64,000 nt of DNA from NCBI RefSeq assembly GCF_006345805.1, contig NC_043004.1, positions 32,798,001-32,862,000 on the forward strand. Direction: 5' to 3'. This document shows, one piece after another, positions 11,996 through 57,731 of this stretch. The notes beneath the pieces are model-generated. The model made no database searches. It had not been told where the DNA came from and saw nothing but the letters and a program-made list of their open reading frames with translations. This DNA is from Octopus sinensis (taxonomy: Eukaryota). The first letter of the stretch is position 1. Each line of letters starts with the position of its first letter. The position numbers and the translations under genes were made by a program.

Positions 11996-13466
11996 CATGT
12001 GCGTGCGTGTATGTATGTATGTCGTCTCTTCTAACTTACAATTAGAGACAATCATGGAACCAAACAAATTAACAAATTAATTTAATTAACTAAATTAAAA
12101 TATAAATTAACGAAACAAAGTAAATCAATAATAAAATCGATATTTTAGTTAATTATTTCTGTGCTGGGCGCCGTAATAGGTAGAGAATTGTCAGCAAGTT
12201 GAGTTTCACTCATCAGATTAAGTTCCTTGTTGAAGATGTGTAAATGTGTTTGGGAGAGGCATGAATGTCTCCAGCCTGTTTTTGTTTTCTACTTAGAAAA
12301 TGATATTGTGGTTAGTTAGGAGAAACCAATATTATATTTGATTACAACGTGTATCGTAAAGTAAGAGGTAAGCTCTCGATAAGCAGAGACTGTAGTCCTG
12401 TTTCGATTCTTGACTGGAAGCCTCTCACTTCCTTTGTCCGACAAAACTGAATTATCCGAGCGTCGGATAATTCGGTTTAATTTCCCTGTTAAATCTAATC
12501 TTTGTGCATAAAAAACGCCATCTCACCTACATATCTCACACCGAGTTAGCGACTTAGCATTCATATTCACCGAAATCGACTTCACTAATCGAATCTTCCA
12601 GGGATTAGATTAGTGGTATTAACAGATTAAGACCAAATTTATATTTAATACATTCCTTTGCTAGATGTGAAATGGCTTCGTGGATATAGAACCGGGTTAG
12701 CAGCAGACAGCGAGTTCAAAACCATTGTGAATAACCCCCTAGTATTGTTGTTGTCATTTAACCCTAGGTCAGACCTAATTGAACAGATTTATAATCAAAG
12801 GCGTTCCAACCATGTACATTCGTTTTTTTTTTTTTCAAATATAAGTTGTATTTAAGATCACATTATCTAGTGGTACCTTAGCGTTTTATTTTTCTTTCTA
12901 AGGGTATTAGAGAGATGGGGGGGGGACCTGGCTGGTGAGCGGGCTGAATCGTTAGGATGACGGGAAAAATGATTAGCGGCATTTCGTCCGTCTTTACGTT
13001 CTGGGTTCAAATTCTGTCGGGGTCGACTTTTGTCATTCATCATTTCGGGTTTGATAAAATAAGTACCAGTCGAGCATTGGGATCGATCTGATCGACTTAA
13101 CAGCATCCCCGAGGCTGCTGACCATGTACCGTACCAAAGTTTGAAACCATTAGTATAATTATTCATGAGATTAGATTAAGAACGACGACACTTGGAAATC
13201 ATGTGCACAAATACCACCTTGTCCCTGGTGGGTTTCACTTGTTATGGTTTTCATTCGTGGTCGAACTGTTTCTTTTCACTCGTGGTCTCCACAGATGTTG
13301 CTTCTATCAAATGATGACTGAATACCACGACTTCGCAGTCTTGTCATCAGCGCCTCGTTTGCCTATTCACACAGAAAATGGTTGTGTTTTGCCGCTGGCT
13401 TTTCCCTATCTTTAGTACTTACAGGGTTACTTGGGTTGGAGCTGCGTTTGTGGTTCAATTGGGCAA

Positions 13467-21477: not shown

Positions 21478-21856
21478 AAGAAATACTGAATTTCTAAATC
21501 TCTCGTAGAGACATGTACGGTGGTGGGGCGATAGAATGGTTGTATACTGTCAATCTAACAAGAACGTGACAGTAGGGGGGTACACCACCGCTGTATAGCC
21601 CTAGGAAGCATAGAACGCCTCCTGATGGCTTTGACACATTTGTAGGCCGATGAAGGACAATGATCCTGAAACACGTGTCCCTAGATGCAGCTTCGGCGGC
21701 CGGGGGTGTTTGTCTCCCCTTCGTAAATGTATATAAGGACACAGGGAAAAATGTGTCAAAGCCATCAGGAGGCGTTCGATGCTTCCTAGGGCTATACAGC
21801 GGTGGTGTACCCCCCTACTGTCACGTTCGTGTTAGATTAACAGTATACAACCATTC

Positions 21857-21860
<4 letters not shown>
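21478..21860. mobile_element. (TA)n-inserted non-coding element with inverted arms and a hammerhead (PLE pLTR / retrozyme-like)
   Basis: Arms 21531-21641 and 21749-21860 are near-perfect reverse complements; the hammerhead lies in the spacer. Confidence 0.75.
21643..21683 (+). ncRNA. Type I hammerhead ribozyme (U4C variant)
   Basis: UAGG CCGAUGA AGGA-CAAUGA-UCCU GAAA CACGUG UC/CCUA. All three stems pair and stem III is the palindrome ACACGUGU. Predicted cut after GUC (21679). Confidence 0.7.
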
Positions 21861-28936: not shown

Positions 28937-28973
28937 ATATATAATATATATAATATATATATATATATATAAT

Positions 28974-29195
28974 ATATACCAATTAAGGACTGAACACGAA
29001 AAGTGGACAGTCAACATGCTAGATATAGACGTCAAATCGCCATTTGACGTCTATATCTAGCATGTTGACTGTCCACTTTCCGTGTTCAGTCCTTAATTGG
29101 TATATATAAATATTTTAATCTTCGGATTCTTTTTTAATATGCTAGACCACTGGTTTTAATTGATTATTCAATATCAATTTCTACCCTTAATTAAT

Positions 29196-39280: not shown

Positions 39281-40157
39281 ACAGTGTGAGATGAGTAAAT
39301 TGTCGCCATTTATATCTTTAATTACGCGCATGCGCATGGTTTGCTTTTGATTTTGTCAACTACACAGCATAGTAGAGTCATTTGAGCACAGGCTATAAGA
39401 AAAAACAGCACCATGACGCAATTCAGTCTGCCAGAAATTTGGAAACGACATTCTGATCTTCTTGGCATTCGCACCGGAAGCTCCAATACGAACATTTCAG
39501 AGTGTTTGGGTGTCAATTAGAGGACAGTGCAATTTGAGGACATGTATCGAGAGTAATAAAAATCAAACATCCAGTCAACCTCATGATACTTAAAGTGATC
39601 ACTAGTGATGGCAACGTTATGCCTCTAGCCATATTCTCACACAGCCTCAGACTCAACACGGAGGCCTACATCAAGTGTCTGGAGGTGGTAGTGCTGCCCT
39701 GGGTCAACAGGCTGGCTGCGGGAAGACCTAGTCTGGCAACAGGACTCTGCACCCTACCACATGAGCAGGGGAACCCAGTCATGGCTGTCAGACAATTTCT
39801 GCAACCACATCACCCTTAACATCTGGCCACCTAACTCCCCAGACTGCAACCCTCTTCATTATTATCTGTGGGGCGCATTTGAGCGACAGTCCAACAAAAC
39901 TACTTGTAACACCAAAAAGGAACTGAAGGCAAGGATTATGGCAACATTCACCAACATAAACAAGGAGACCGTCTAGAAGAGTTGCGGGTGACTCCGAAGT
40001 CGCCTGGAGGCCGTAGTTGAAGTCAATGGCGATTTTATTGCAGAAATTTACTCTTTAGTATTTCAAGATATTTTTATGCAATTTTGGTAAATATATCTTA
40101 AAATTAGATGTCAGTGTTATTTCCATTTTTGGATAATCTAGACAATATATTCGCCAC

Positions 40158-40162
<5 letters not shown>
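39281..40162 (+). mobile_element. Decayed Tc1/mariner-superfamily element
   Basis: Frameshifted transposase pieces KIKHPVNLMILKVITSDG and WPPNSPDCNPLHYYLWG; degenerate TIRs (cagtgtga...tcgccacaccct). Confidence 0.75.
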
Positions 40163-40200
<38 letters not shown>

Positions 40201-40204
<4 letters not shown>

Positions 40205-40875
40205 GTATATATTGGCAGGGCTTAGCCCTGCCAATATACACATATATTAGAATTTTCTCTGACTCCTCAGATTTTTGTATGCCGGACTACTGGTTTTAAA
40301 TTGATATTAAAATTAATATTAATTTATCTCCCTCATTATTTAAATATTGAAATAAATACGTTCTCTAGTACTAAGCCCGAACCGCAGTGAATTATTTACT
40401 GCAGCCCTTCGCCTCAGAAATTTATTAGCGCGCCAGAGCCAAGACATTTGAAATTTTATCACTAGTGTAATCGGTAAAGCTACACACGTGTCTGTACTGG
40501 CACGAAAGCTGGGGTTAGCTTTTCCGCTTACATTACTATGAACGGATGCACTGAAGAAGCACGGACATTTGGATTGCATAAGTAATTCTCTTGTTAAGGC
40601 TGAAACCGAGGTATGCATTTAATTCTGTTTTTTATATAAATTTTCATCTGTCATGCCCGCCAAAATTGGTTCTGGTGTTCGCTGTATTTTTCCTCTAGAG
40701 AATTTCCTTGTAGTTTGACCGTTGATGGTCTATTTCTAGCATATGGCCGACTCCCTAGCAGTAAGCCCTGCCAATATACACATATATTAGAATTTTCTCT
40801 GACTCCTCAGATTTTTGTATGCTGGACTACTGGTTTTAAATTGATATTAAAATTAATATTAATTTATCTCCCTCA

Positions 40876-40881
<6 letters not shown>
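40201..40881 (+). mobile_element. (TA)n-inserted hammerhead element, ~1.2 tandem units (540-nt period) with 5' foldback
   Basis: 40224-40341 is repeated at 40764-40881; hairpin at 40201-40245; hammerhead at 40545-40619. Confidence 0.8.
40545..40619 (+). ncRNA. Type I hammerhead ribozyme
   Basis: GAUGCA CUGAAGA AGC-(38 nt)-GCU GAAA CCGAGG UA/UGCAUU. Canonical core and 6-bp stem I. Predicted cut after 40613. Confidence 0.75.
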
Positions 40882-40920
<39 letters not shown>

Positions 40921-41133
40921 GGGGTGGCTGTGTGGTGAGGAGATTGCTTTTCAGTCACATGGTTCCAAGTTCAGTCCCACTGAATGGAACCTTGTGCAAG
41001 TATCTTCTATTATAGCCGAAAGCCTTGAGAGTAGATTTGGTAGACGGAAAACAGAAGGAAGTCCGTCGTACACACACACACACAGACACACACACACACA
41101 CACACAGACACACACACACACACACATGCGTAT

Positions 41134-43700: not shown

Positions 43701-44104
43701 CTCTATCCCCTCTGGGAAGACAAGTCTTCTCCTCAGGTCCCCTTGTATCTACCACACACATACACATACCCGATACTATCTGGTGCCAATAAAATACCGT
43801 TACTACAATTTCTCTACCCATCGCCCTGCCATGGCACATACTGATAAAACTTTCTGTGATTCTTCAAACTCTTGTGAGCTCTAGTGTTCCTCAGGGCGTT
43901 CGGTTTTGTTCCCACCCCCCAGTCTTTTGATATATTAGCTATTTACATGCAGTAACGTACAACAACACCTGTTTCTATGCAAATGAAGTCACCCTTCATT
44001 CTTCCCTGCCAAAACGTTGCCAATCTTTGGCCGAAACATATTTAAGTTACCTAAGTTATATATATATATATATATATGTATGTATATATATATATATATA
44101 TATA

Positions 44105-44660
44105 TTTATAAGTAAGAGTAAAAGAAAGAATTTCTAATGCCAAAATAAGCCGAAAATAGACACAACGTCAATAACCATGTAGATGTTAATTTAATAGTAT
44201 TCACTTCCGGACTCTCTCACTTTACGAGAGTTTTTAGTTCGAATCGCACGTGTCTCGGGATGAGCTAGAGAGTTTCAATTTTGGATATATTTGGGGTACT
44301 TAATTGTGCTCATGACTTAGTGCTCGCTTCTTCCGTGGGTATAAGTAAGTATTTCACTTATTTCTTGGCCGCATTTATCACTGATGAAGGGAAGGTTCTT
44401 ATGAACAAACTCTGAAATCGGGTCCGATATGGTAATAACGTAATTTTTTAGAAATTTCAGTCGGCTTTCTTCGAAACGCGTGCTTGTTGTGATAAATTAT
44501 ATGCTTATTGACGTTGTATCTATTTTCGGCATATTTTGGCATTAGAAATATTTTCTTTTGCTCTTACTTATAAATTGTTTATAAATTTAACCTTTAAAGG
44601 TATTTTTTAATATGCTGATAGAATTTTTTTTTGAAAAATTTTATCCTACATTCGATGTTA
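44105..44660 (+). mobile_element. (TA)n-inserted hammerhead element with inverted 5' segment
   Basis: 44107-44179 is reverse-complementary to 44500-44572; hammerhead at 44375-44435. Confidence 0.75.
44375..44435 (+). ncRNA. Type I hammerhead ribozyme
   Basis: UUAUCA CUGAUGA AGGG..GUUC-UUAU-GAAC..CUCU GAAA UCGG-GU-CCGA UA/UGGUAA. Canonical core. Predicted cut after 44429. Confidence 0.8.
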
Positions 44661-46467: not shown

Positions 46468-46606
<139 letters not shown>

Positions 46607-46885
46607 CAACAATTGAGGGTAAAATTAATTAATTAATCAATTTCACCAAGTGTTCAGTATGCAAAGGGACCATTTAAGGCGAATTCAAATTATTACATTA
46701 TATAAAAGGCTTAGTAAAATAAATTACTTTGCCGCATACTGAACTCATTAGAAATAGCAGCTAAAAAAAACTTTTTTAAAACTATTTCTAATACTTAAAG
46801 AAAACCTCTCTCATATAGTGTTTGCTCAATTCAACTCACGCAATATGGGGGTAGAGACATTAAAAAATCAAATGCAAAGGTTATT

Positions 46886-46937
46886 TGAGAACGTACGTTT
46901 CAAGATTAGTCAACACGACACTTCTATCATCAGCTCA
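46886..46937 (-). ncRNA. Type I hammerhead ribozyme (unit 1)
   Basis: Minus strand: UGAG CUGAUGA U AGA..GUC-GUGUU-GAC..UCU U GAAA CGUACG UU/CUCA. Stem III is the palindrome ACGUACGU. Confidence 0.75.
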
Positions 46938-47443
46938 GAACTCCCTGGTTTGGATTTGAAAACACTGAAAGTAGGAGCATACCCTTTCGGCCTCCTCTCG
47001 CTTCCGAAGATCTGCTCGCAACTAACAGTGCCAACAAACTCAAAAATGCAAGCGAAGAATTTCTGCTCTCCCCTTTCCACCAGCGTGGGTTAAAATCAGC
47101 AAACACTATGCTTTTTTCGGTAAAATCCGCGGCATTATATAGAGAGAGATGAATTATAATTTCAACAATTGAGGGTAAAATTAATTAATTAATCAATTTC
47201 ACCAAGTGTTCAGTATGCAAAGGGACCATTTAAGGCGAATTCAAATTATTACATTATATAAAAGGGCTTAGTAAAATAAATTACTTTGCCGCATACTGAA
47301 CTCATTAGAAATAGCAGCTAAAAAAAACTTTTTTAAAACTATTTCTAATACTTAAAGAAAACCTCTCTCATATAGTGTTTGCTCAATTCAACTCACGCAA
47401 ATATGGGGGTAGAGACATTAAAAAATCAAGTGCAAAGGTTATT

Positions 47444-47495
47444 TGAGAACGTACGTTTCAAGATTAGTCAACACGACACTTCTATCATCAGCTCA
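47444..47495 (-). ncRNA. Type I hammerhead ribozyme (unit 2)
   Basis: Identical to 46886-46937, 558 nt away. Confidence 0.75.
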
Positions 47496-47815
47496 GAACT
47501 CCCTGGTTTGGATTTGAAAACACTGAAAGTAGGAGCATACCCTTTCGGCCTCCTCTCGCTTCCGAAGATCTGCTCGCAACTAACAGTGCCAACAAACTCA
47601 AAAATGCAAGCGAAGAATTTCTGCTCTCCCCTTTCCACCAGCGTGGGTTAAAATCAGCAAACACTATGCTTTTTTCGGTAAAATCCGCGGCATTATATAG
47701 AGAGAGATGAATTAAGTATTAGAAATAGTTTTAAAAAAGTTTTTTTTAGCTGCTATTTCTAATGAGTTCAGTATGCGGCAAAGTAATTTATTTTACTAAG
47801 CCCTTTTATATAATG

Positions 47816-47863
<48 letters not shown>

Positions 47864-47966: not shown

Positions 47967-48070
47967 CTACATACGACCATTTCGAATGGTAATACCAACA
48001 TGTAAGAAAAAACATCAATTGTAACAATAATAATTAAAATAGTAATGTATTACCATTCTCTTCAGTGCAA
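47967..48070 (-). ncRNA. Type I hammerhead ribozyme with long stem II
   Basis: Minus strand: UUGCA CUGAAGA GAAUGGUAAUAC-(51 nt)-GUAUUACCAUUC GAAA UGGUCG UA/UGUAG. Perfect 12-bp stem II sits exactly between the core halves. Confidence 0.75.
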
Positions 48071-53040: not shown

Positions 53041-53344
53041 TGTGTGTGTATAAAAAAGTTGAATTAGATTCGTCCTTTAATTTGGAGGTTTCCAAAAAAA
53101 GATTTCTAATATAGGTTCTTCATATTTCGGTGGTAGCTTACTGGCGTAAAATTGCGAATACAAAAATAATACTTGTATATTGTGTGTTGTAAATTTATGG
53201 AAAGAAATCCAATAAAACTCAACAATTTTGATAAAAATGGAGAAGAGAATGTGTTAAAATATATGAGAGAATTTTATATCATGCAGACGATCGTTTCGTA
53301 CAGAGATATAAAAATAATGCAAATTCAAACACACACAAATATAT

Positions 53345-53684
53345 AATAATAATAATAAGGAGTATAACTCTAAACTTACAGGGAAAAATTCAGTTAAGTA
53401 TTAAATCAAATTTCACAATATAAAATATATAAAATATAAATTAGAGATAAAACCACTATTATACAACTCAAACAGTGATAGACATAAGATATATTTTTAT
53501 AAAACATATAACTAGATCTCAAAAAGTATAAAAATGAATAATCAATATATAATAAGTAATAAGTATAATACTTATATTTTGATGATTCATTTTTATACTT
53601 TTTGTGATCTAGTTATATGTTTTATAAAAATATATATTGTTATTTATGTTTTGGTTTATGTCTATCGCTGTTTGAGTTGCATAA
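53345..53684. mobile_element. AT-rich (TA)n-associated element with internal inversion; relative at 55140-55350
   Basis: 53459-53545 is mirrored at 53578-53684. Both copies share aaacttacagggaaaaatt and aaattagagataaaaccacta (inverted in the second). Confidence 0.65.
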
Positions 53685-53725
53685 TATATATATACCTTAT
53701 TTCAATAATGATATATGTCTCTCTT

Positions 53726-53809
<84 letters not shown>

Positions 53810-53850
53810 ATAATATATATATTATATATATATATATATATATAATATTT

Positions 53851-55021
53851 TAATTGATTTGCTTTTCGCGGGAGGGAATTTTTCTTCGAAGTATACGTCT
53901 CGCTTTTATCCTTCGAAACGTTTAGTAGATGAAATCTTAGCGACCTGAAGAAGGGGATTTTTCGTTGTGCTTATTGTCCTGTATCTCCCCCTTTTTTTTT
54001 TTTGCTTGTCTTGTTCCTTGGTTTGTGTCTATGTTTTCGTCTCTCTATGTGTTCGACGTCTTTTTGGTGTCCTGTACACATATATGCGTGTATATGTACA
54101 TGTAGAGGTAGGTACGTACATATATGTTTATATATATGCATATATTCTATTTTATTAACATATTATACGACTAAACGCACGCACCCTACTAAGTAGATTG
54201 TTCTGTTTATCAAGTTAGCCTTGATATTAACTCTCACGCGACTCTGCATCTTTCTTTCTTTCTCTCCCATTCCCTTTTTCGTTTTTTTTCCCTCACTTAA
54301 CTTGTCTCTCCTCTCTCTCTCTCATTCTTCATTCTCTCTCTCTCCTTTCACCATTCTTCATGGTCCTCTCGCACCATTCCCCTTCTTCTCTCTCTTCCTC
54401 TTGCTCCTCCTCCTCCCCCATTCCCGTCATCCATCTGCGACGATACTTCCGTCGTAACTGCTTCCTGTCCTTTCTCGCCCGCCTTGTAAGGCTTCTGGTC
54501 GACAATTTTCCCTCTCTGTCTTCCACGATAATCCAGCGTTTGCAATACTTTTTTCGTCTGGCGTTAACAGCCCTTCTTATCTTGTTCTCCTTGTCCTGTC
54601 TCTCACTGTTATATATTTATTTTTCCACTGTTTATATATATATATTTTTTACTGTTTATATGTTTGTACTGTCGTTACCGTCTTGCTTTTTTTACCCCTC
54701 TGCGAAAAGATCTCAGAATTTTAATTGATTTGCTTTTCGCGGAAGGAATTTTTCTTCGAAGTATACGTCTCGCTTTTATCCTTCGAACGTTTAGTAGATG
54801 AAATCTAGCGACTGAAGAAGGGGATTTTTCGTTGTGCTTATTGTCCTGTATCTCCCCCTTTTTTTGCTTGTCTTGTTCCTTGTTTGTGTCTATGTGTTCG
54901 TCTCTCTATGTGTTCGACGTCTTTTTGGTGTCCTGTACACATATATGCGTGTATATGTACATGTAGAGGTAGGTACGTACATATATGTTATATATATGCA
55001 TATTGTTCTATTTTATTAACA
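53851..55021 (+). mobile_element. (TA)n-inserted element with ~310-bp direct repeats (~870-nt period)
   Basis: 53851-54160 is repeated at 54722-55021 around a pyrimidine-rich non-coding core. Confidence 0.75.
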
Positions 55022-55061
55022 TATATATATTATTATATGCGCGTGTGCGCATAAATATATG

Positions 55062-55094
<33 letters not shown>

Positions 55095-55347
55095 ATATAT
55101 ATATACATATATATATTATATATATATATATTTATAATAATAATAATATTAGGGAGTAAATCCAAACTTACAGGGAAAAATTAGATTTAGGATTAAATCT
55201 AATTTTACAGCATAAATATATATATATTTATTTACATTTTGAATTTTATTTTTTTATATATTTTGTATATTATATTAATTTTATTTCTATGTTTTGGTTT
55301 GTTTTTCACTGTTTGATTTGCCTAATAGTGGTTTTATCTCTAATTTA

Positions 55348-55381
<34 letters not shown>

Positions 55382-57509: not shown

Positions 57510-57513
<4 letters not shown>

Positions 57514-57731
57514 CAATTCGGAAATAGGTGAAAAATTAAAAAGGTTTACCCTAATTGATCTTTTAGACGATGCATCGTTTCTGCGTTTTTAATGGACGAA
57601 TGCCTGTTAAGGCCATTCCTAAATTGTTATATATTTACATTTTAGTCTCATAACTATTTTTCTTTTCCACTGGGCCGCTGGTAGTGATAAATTTCTATCG
57701 AATTTTTTACTACCCTAAATGATTAATTGAT

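Follow-up and report, generated by a model that had tools for sequence, protein, structure and literature searches.

In the 64,000-nt window of Octopus sinensis DNA considered here (the whole stretch analysed, from contig NC_043004.1), positions 40201-40881 hold a short element set into a (TA)n run, in which a complete 540-nt unit follows a short inverted arm and a partial copy of its own last 118 nt (Table 1). The duplicated 3′ terminus had been placed correctly by the initial annotation, which was made from the letters alone; the two copies recur with a period of 540 nt and differ only at 40283 (C/T), the upstream copy continuing into 40342, the start of the unit, as had also been described, and the downstream copy continuing into (TA)n. 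At the 5′ end, 40201-40222 mirrors 40224-40245 head-to-head about T40223. The fold-back proposed earlier for this end survives as a mirrored arm but not as a literal snap-back, which would require a sterically impossible 1-nt loop; a DNA fold of the mirrored end requires a loop of 3 nt.

Table 1. Parts of the element at 40201-40881 and its (TA)n target, in window coordinates.
Feature	Position	Strand	Remarks
Left half of (TA)n target	40162..40200 (TA run 40162-40199)		TA run
Inverted 5′ arm	40201..40222	-	21/22 pairs; outer end on internal ATAT motif
Partial upstream copy, last 118 nt of unit (pseudo-LTR)	40224..40341	+	1 mismatch
Complete 540-nt non-coding unit	40342..40881	+	period 540; six-frame Pfam search blank at cut-off
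Type I hammerhead motif	40544..40620	+	predicted cut after 40613; long stem II
3′-terminal copy of 118-nt repeat	40764..40881	+	ends at fixed 3′ end
95-nt 'tail', 3′-end portion absent from inverted arm	40786..40880	+	
Right half of (TA)n target	40882..40916 (TA run 40881-40916)		TA run

The window is rich in microsatellites (81 TA runs), the GC content of the 1-kb bin holding the element is 0.34, and a target-site duplication is unreadable inside (TA)n. To the left, a decayed DDE (Tc1/mariner-like) transposase remnant at 39400-40161 (PF13358, E 0.0014, below cut-off) ends at the TA run that received the element, and to the right of the (TA)n lies a dispersed repeat whose motif occurs seven times in the window. 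Apparent inverted flanks at 40159-40204 and 40878-40923 were rejected as element termini, being TA runs beside two unrelated repeats, and a period-536 direct repeat at 12934 and 13470 was rejected as a member of the same family, since two copies of a widespread dispersed repeat seem to make it up. Further off, 2415-2855 holds an exon-sized frame that matches the C-terminal portion of a copper transporter of the Ctr type (PF04145, E 8e-16). The window reads as animal DNA, and its dispersed repeats appear octopus-like.

The six read-through frames of the element hold no Pfam family at cut-off, with neither RT nor GIY-YIG found, and the longest open frames reach 92-93 codons; two sub-threshold matches to bacterial families were rejected. 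The element is not an autonomous EN+ Penelope-like element (PLE). Candidate splice sites can be seen by eye (donors at 40611 and 40762, acceptors at 40713 and 40810), and no GT-AG joint occurs among those listed from contigs of the four public runs described below. A sigma-70 scan was set aside as irrelevant to an animal genome.

The hammerhead motif and the fold of the unit

The motif inside the unit has the CUGANGA, GAAA and UH boxes and the three stems, with stem I open, of a type I hammerhead. Stem I pairs 40544-40550 with 40614-40620 (7 bp including two G-U), the core consists of CTGAAGA (40551-40557), GAAAC (40602-40606) and GTA at the predicted cut, stem-loop II is 44 nt long and closed by A-U, and stem III has 2 bp and a 2-nt loop, within the self-complementary segment 40605-40612. 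A descriptor of the motif, written after the motif had been seen, matched none of 5000 dinucleotide shuffles of the element, and its two real matches in the window compare with a mean of 0.02 in 100 shuffled windows. A descriptor match with a 75-nt stem II and an 8-bp stem I lies at 47972-48065 on the minus strand. Rfam reported no hammerhead, either at gathering score across the window or among the 51 matches to the element at E<=10, which we rejected as TA-repeat noise; the 'canonical hammerhead' of the initial annotation accordingly holds for the core only.

Two copies of the segment that forms stem III pair with each other at -6.6 kcal/mol, and the catalytic monomer fold, with stems I and II formed, lies 2.6 kcal/mol above the MFE. 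A 2-bp stem with a 2-nt loop cannot close in a monomer, yet pairs with itself, which points to the dimer-dependent type of ribozyme, and in these fold models stem III probably works only as a dimer. Such a design has been described for metazoan type I motifs in the pseudo-LTRs (pLTRs) of PLEs (PMC4209133). The locus at 40201-40881 holds one ribozyme only, so its own monomer cannot be released by two cuts, and it lacks the two or more consecutive units, each with a complete hammerhead, that make up an 'active array' of non-LTR retrozymes. Folding the 540-nt unit as a circle, a check proposed in the initial annotation, gave a branched structure, 61% paired, that is more stable than 40 shuffles (-133.2 versus -110.7 +/- 5.4 kcal/mol; z -4.2), a score taken on circular folds, which in this model reflects structure and not circularity.

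Copies of the element in public sequencing contigs

Parts of the element are contained in 20 of the 24 public runs listed, which come from 10 studies under four organism labels; none of these runs is recorded as RNA, and for one (X1) that identity is a guess. We aligned contigs from four runs (three organism labels) to 40201-40763, obtaining 58, 1100, 751 and 415 contigs per run, many of them at 85-95% identity. In one of these runs (X2), 27 contigs pass over into (TA)n at 40347, an exit that corresponds to the same 3′ end because the six bases after 40341 resemble a TA run, and summed contig depth, which is not a copy number, drops between 40315-40333 and 40353-40371 in all four runs (3.1-, 80-, 7.7- and 6.7-fold). 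The fixed 3′ end for which the initial annotation proposed to test homologues is thus recovered, and the one-off local duplication named there as a possible refutation did not appear, the family being high-copy with a fixed 3′ end. The base at 40283 is T in 239,178 of 239,325 of the family depth (X2 contigs), so the C is private to the upstream 118-nt copy.

The junction between 3′ end and unit start (40341/40342) is crossed by at least three contigs among the 32 pieces listed (2323 more exist), with 6-17 other letters and with 24/96, 55/25 and 13/115 letters on its two sides, none having on both the 31 needed to count as bridging. Contigs that diverge at 10-13% of their letters run across this junction or carry on from it, and it is likely common to diverged copies. 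Among the 39 variant sites listed (there are 12 further rows), none falls in the 15 core bases, where about 1.1 would be expected, so that the loss of core conservation named in the initial annotation as a possible refutation does not appear, weak as a comparison with about one expected site is. All three listed variants among the 42 paired hammerhead positions turn G-U into A-U; they are one-sided and come from related copies.

Depth over 40467-40580, a stretch that includes the 5′ half of the hammerhead, is much reduced against the rest of the unit, and joints in run X1 skip 120 and 92 nt within this region, which suggests that many relatives differ in that part or lack it. A loose end of X1 at 40639, with only about 17 nt mirrored, may be a library artefact and was left uncounted. 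Two motif scans of metagenome contigs returned no match. Being short, poor in GC, without a coding frame, equipped with a type I hammerhead and present in many copies, the unit agrees with a non-LTR retrozyme family in its monomer form.

Neighbouring elements and the inverted arm

Of 27 local inverted repeats listed in the window, we pursued the ones whose arm lies against a TA run. An element in (TA)n at 28972-29195 has a mirrored arm of 65 nt with a spacer of 4 nt, and a tail of 89 nt; it has no hammerhead left, and agrees with the 40-kb element at about 73% over the last 70 nt. Another (TA)n insertion, at 44089-44659, has a 93-nt inverted arm, an 83-nt tail and a type I hammerhead of its own, with CTGATGA at 44381 and cleavage predicted after 44429. 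On the minus strand, 46601-47820 is a dimer of 556 + 558 nt that begins exactly at a unit boundary and has a 109-nt inverted arm and a 92-nt tail; a hammerhead-like motif with a palindromic stem III near 46890-46945 was found by eye and missed by the descriptor. This exact 2.0-mer suggests that RT stops at the start site of the upstream unit. The initial annotation had called the 46.6-kb unit close in size and unrelated-looking: the sizes are indeed near, but the unit has the same architecture and a weak 3′-end similarity.

That similarity, taken over the last 100 nt, was equalled by 0 of 1000 shuffles when the 29-kb element was compared with either the 40-kb or the 46-kb element, by 7 of 1000 between the 40-kb and 46-kb elements, and by 31, 505 and 856 of 1000 in the three pairs that include the 44-kb element; kinship of the 44-kb and 40-kb 3′ ends (505/1000) was rejected as not significant. 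Overall, similarity among the 3′ ends of these AT-rich sequences is weak. Searching the window with a profile built from three 3′ ends recovered no strong copy other than those inputs, and a Pfam search of 18 frames of the three neighbouring elements gave no matches and no PLE domain.

Several other insertions lie nearby. An inverted-repeat element in (TA)n at 21478-21859 contains a hammerhead-like motif at 21647, with a U4C core variant and a palindromic stem III, that is antisense to the apparent tail polarity of the element. A different AT-rich family, also with inverted 5′ arms, is represented twice on the minus strand (53343-53686 and 55137-55350), the second copy consisting of a tail and a non-duplicated arm, as in twin priming. 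At 53847-55029, two 320-nt direct repeats 871 nt apart enclose a purine-rich spacer (minus strand) and are flanked by (TA)n; no Pfam match was found there, and this is possibly another non-autonomous pLTR element. Finally, an older insertion in (TA)n, at 57512-57731, has a mirrored arm in decay, a tail of 97 nt and a 3′-end motif of similar kind.

The distance from the outer end of the arm to the fixed 3′ end is 95 nt at 40 kb, 89 nt at 29 kb, 83 nt at 44 kb and 92 nt at 46 kb, and all four outer ends lie on an internal TA-rich motif, the units holding 4-9 ATAT/TATA clusters each; looser cases give about 104 nt (53.3-53.7 kb), 83 nt (55.1-55.35 kb), 97 nt (57.5-57.7 kb, decayed arm) and 52 nt (21.5-21.9 kb). 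With few elements and a window of agreement chosen afterwards, this near-constant distance suggests a second priming site and a tail that exceeds the 30-40 bp of the literature. The arms at 44 and 46 kb keep this anchor though the 5′ end of the main copy is more than 300 nt away, and at 55 kb the main copy is tail only and the arm has no duplicated partner.

It is possible, though on our reading somewhat doubtful, that the arm arose without a second target-primed start, the finished cDNA folding back (or priming itself on an antisense template) and copying its own sequence until a TA-rich stretch annealed to the target. Palindromes reported from the inverted junction of PLEs have been read as self-priming (PMC3846280), all outer arm ends fall on TA-rich microhomology, and at 40 and 29 kb the arm stops at the unit position where the main copy also ends. 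The 1-nt loop that this demands at 40 kb cannot form, however, and neither the 44- and 46-kb arms, whose anchors lie 83 and 92 nt upstream of the 3′ end and far from the 5′ end of the main copy, nor the 55-kb arm without a duplicated partner is what it would produce. For these three reasons priming of the second target strand upstream is preferred over a literal snap-back.

In twin priming of L1, the second target strand primes internally and the 5′ part of the copy becomes inverted, a pattern of tail plus non-duplicated inverted arm. The present arms differ in that they start at a near-constant distance from the 3′ end and often duplicate sequence, and poly(A) is absent. A more general version, in which (TA)n-targeting elements of diverged families would be primed both at a fixed 3′ end and, on the other strand, at a TA-rich motif about 85-105 nt upstream, is offered as a bolder reading that we think less likely than not to hold.

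Origin of the element and its place among known families

Much of this architecture is familiar. The pLTRs of PLEs arise as partial tandems; an inverted 5′-truncated copy stands next to the 5′ end, one end bears a tail of 30-40 bp, the pLTRs contain hammerheads, insertion is biased to (TA)n, and non-autonomous elements that form pLTRs exist (PMC8557442). For PAc, reverse transcription begins at two internal positions, cutting and extension take place on both strands of the target, DNA rich in AT is favoured, and the hammerhead cleaves with the help of protein, a step that insertion in vitro can do without (PMC11167929). Non-LTR retrozymes of Metazoa have been defined together with the circRNAs they form (PMC7229834), and retrozymes have since been described as non-autonomous PLE derivatives linked to PLE pLTRs, with units of 51-972 bp, dispersed monomers and one of nine dimers cleaved (bioRxiv 10.64898/2026.07.22.740005). 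One octopus genome holds 31 recently active Penelope-like families (PMC13282606).

We think it very probable that the element belongs to a protein-less 540-nt hammerhead repeat, present here as 1.2 copies plus a mirrored arm in a TA run and likely inserted in trans by the RT/GIY-YIG enzyme of an autonomous PLE. The tandem-pLTR origin suggested in the initial annotation fits a high-copy family whose fixed 3′ end runs into (TA)n. Multi-unit or circular RNA of the family would be made elsewhere in the genome, its hammerheads cutting only as dimers or with protein help; a PLE protein would nick (TA)n, and RT would start at the fixed internal site 40881 (equivalent to 40341), copy one full turn plus 118 nt, and stop. 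On the other target strand, priming would occur some 95 nt upstream, at a TA-rich motif; the short antisense arm that results would lack the tail, and the two cDNA ends would then be joined. The resulting one-ribozyme copy would likely be inert offspring, unable to cut out a monomer by itself. We counted the same build at 28972-29195, 44089-44659 and 46601-47820 in favour of a PLE-type insertion, and counted against it the 95-nt tail, set beside the published 30-40 bp, and the lack of a PLE domain in the 40-kb element or its three neighbours together with the blank metagenome scans. Also weighed against it were the short overlaps of the three contigs crossing the unit junction, the low depth over 40467-40580, the missing Rfam score, the 2.6 kcal/mol by which the catalytic monomer fold lies above the MFE, and the lack of a readable target-site duplication.

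A plausible variant, though one we think less likely than not, has the family spreading as a circular RNA of 540 nt, which hammerhead cleavage and ligation would produce, with the extra 0.2 turn left by RT circling its template. This route has been proposed (PMC4209133), metazoan retrozymes do form circRNAs (PMC7229834), and the unit circle folds better than its 40 shuffles, although the z-score of -4.2 concerns structure alone. A linear multi-unit transcript would yield the same product, however, and insertion of PAc in vitro needed no cleavage (PMC11167929), while eight of nine Xenopus dimers stayed uncleaved (bioRxiv 10.64898/2026.07.22.740005).

It is improbable that the element is the 5′-truncated end of an autonomous PLE whose 540-nt period reflects a private deletion or local duplication at this locus. 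PLE insertions are mostly 5′-truncated, and changes of depth along the unit show that relatives differ near 40460-40580; yet contigs diverged by 10-13% run across the unit junction or carry on from it, no ORF remnant is present, and a second short-period dimer stands at 46.6 kb. A chance motif or an assembly artefact beside microsatellites is scarcely credible: (TA)n lies on both flanks and none of the contigs listed spans the whole stretch, but the motif is absent from all 5000 shuffles, the two 118-nt copies differ at one base, and the same architecture occurs in unrelated elements of the window.

The protein-less PLE-type repeat that we favour can be set beside three known groups. With metazoan non-LTR retrozymes it shares a non-coding AT-rich unit with one type I hammerhead (PMC7229834; bioRxiv 10.64898/2026.07.22.740005), a unit of 540 nt within the published size range, for which dispersed monomers are also described, and, with the axolotl retrozyme, a dimer-dependent stem III. 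It departs from active retrozymes, defined by two complete units, in its single ribozyme, and from the metazoan set in exceeding the average of about 300 bp and in being known from DNA, where theirs are known as circRNA. With the pLTRs of endonuclease-bearing PLEs (Penelope/Poseidon, Neptune, Nematis, Hydra; PMC8557442, PMC3846280, PMC4209133) it shares the partial tandem, the inverted 5′-truncated copy with a palindromic junction, the hammerhead in the repeat and the microsatellite target; its one-sided extension may correspond to their tail, at 95 nt in place of 30-40 bp, and it differs in having no RT/GIY-YIG ORF and an extended 44-nt stem II hairpin closed by A-U. The element is placed in no particular PLE clade; Naiads mostly lack canonical hammerheads. 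Non-autonomous Chlamys elements such as MRC1 likewise form pLTRs and head-to-tail insertions, but these are green algal and most Chlamys lack canonical hammerheads (PMC8557442).

The element behaves like a non-autonomous hammerhead repeat derived from a PLE, and is best classed as a monomer-type copy of one. All of its features are already published for PLEs, and the partial tandem and mirrored 5′ end are ordinary for the known PLE/retrozyme class. The literature covered, which excludes most subscription journals and Repbase, contained no paper on this family, none joining 'twin priming' with 'pseudo-LTR', and no tail of about 90 nt.

As a single element it matters little, since hammerhead-bearing pLTR repeats are abundant in animal genomes, beyond adding a further hammerhead family missed by Rfam. 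Its junctions and those of its neighbours bear on how PLEs build their tandem and inverted ends, the formation of which has been named as an open question (PMC8557442). If priming at two sites were true, the inverted 5′ copy of PLEs would be twin priming by a dimeric enzyme, with a tail of double to triple the length so far published, and the origin of PLE inverted ends would be testable from genome copies alone.
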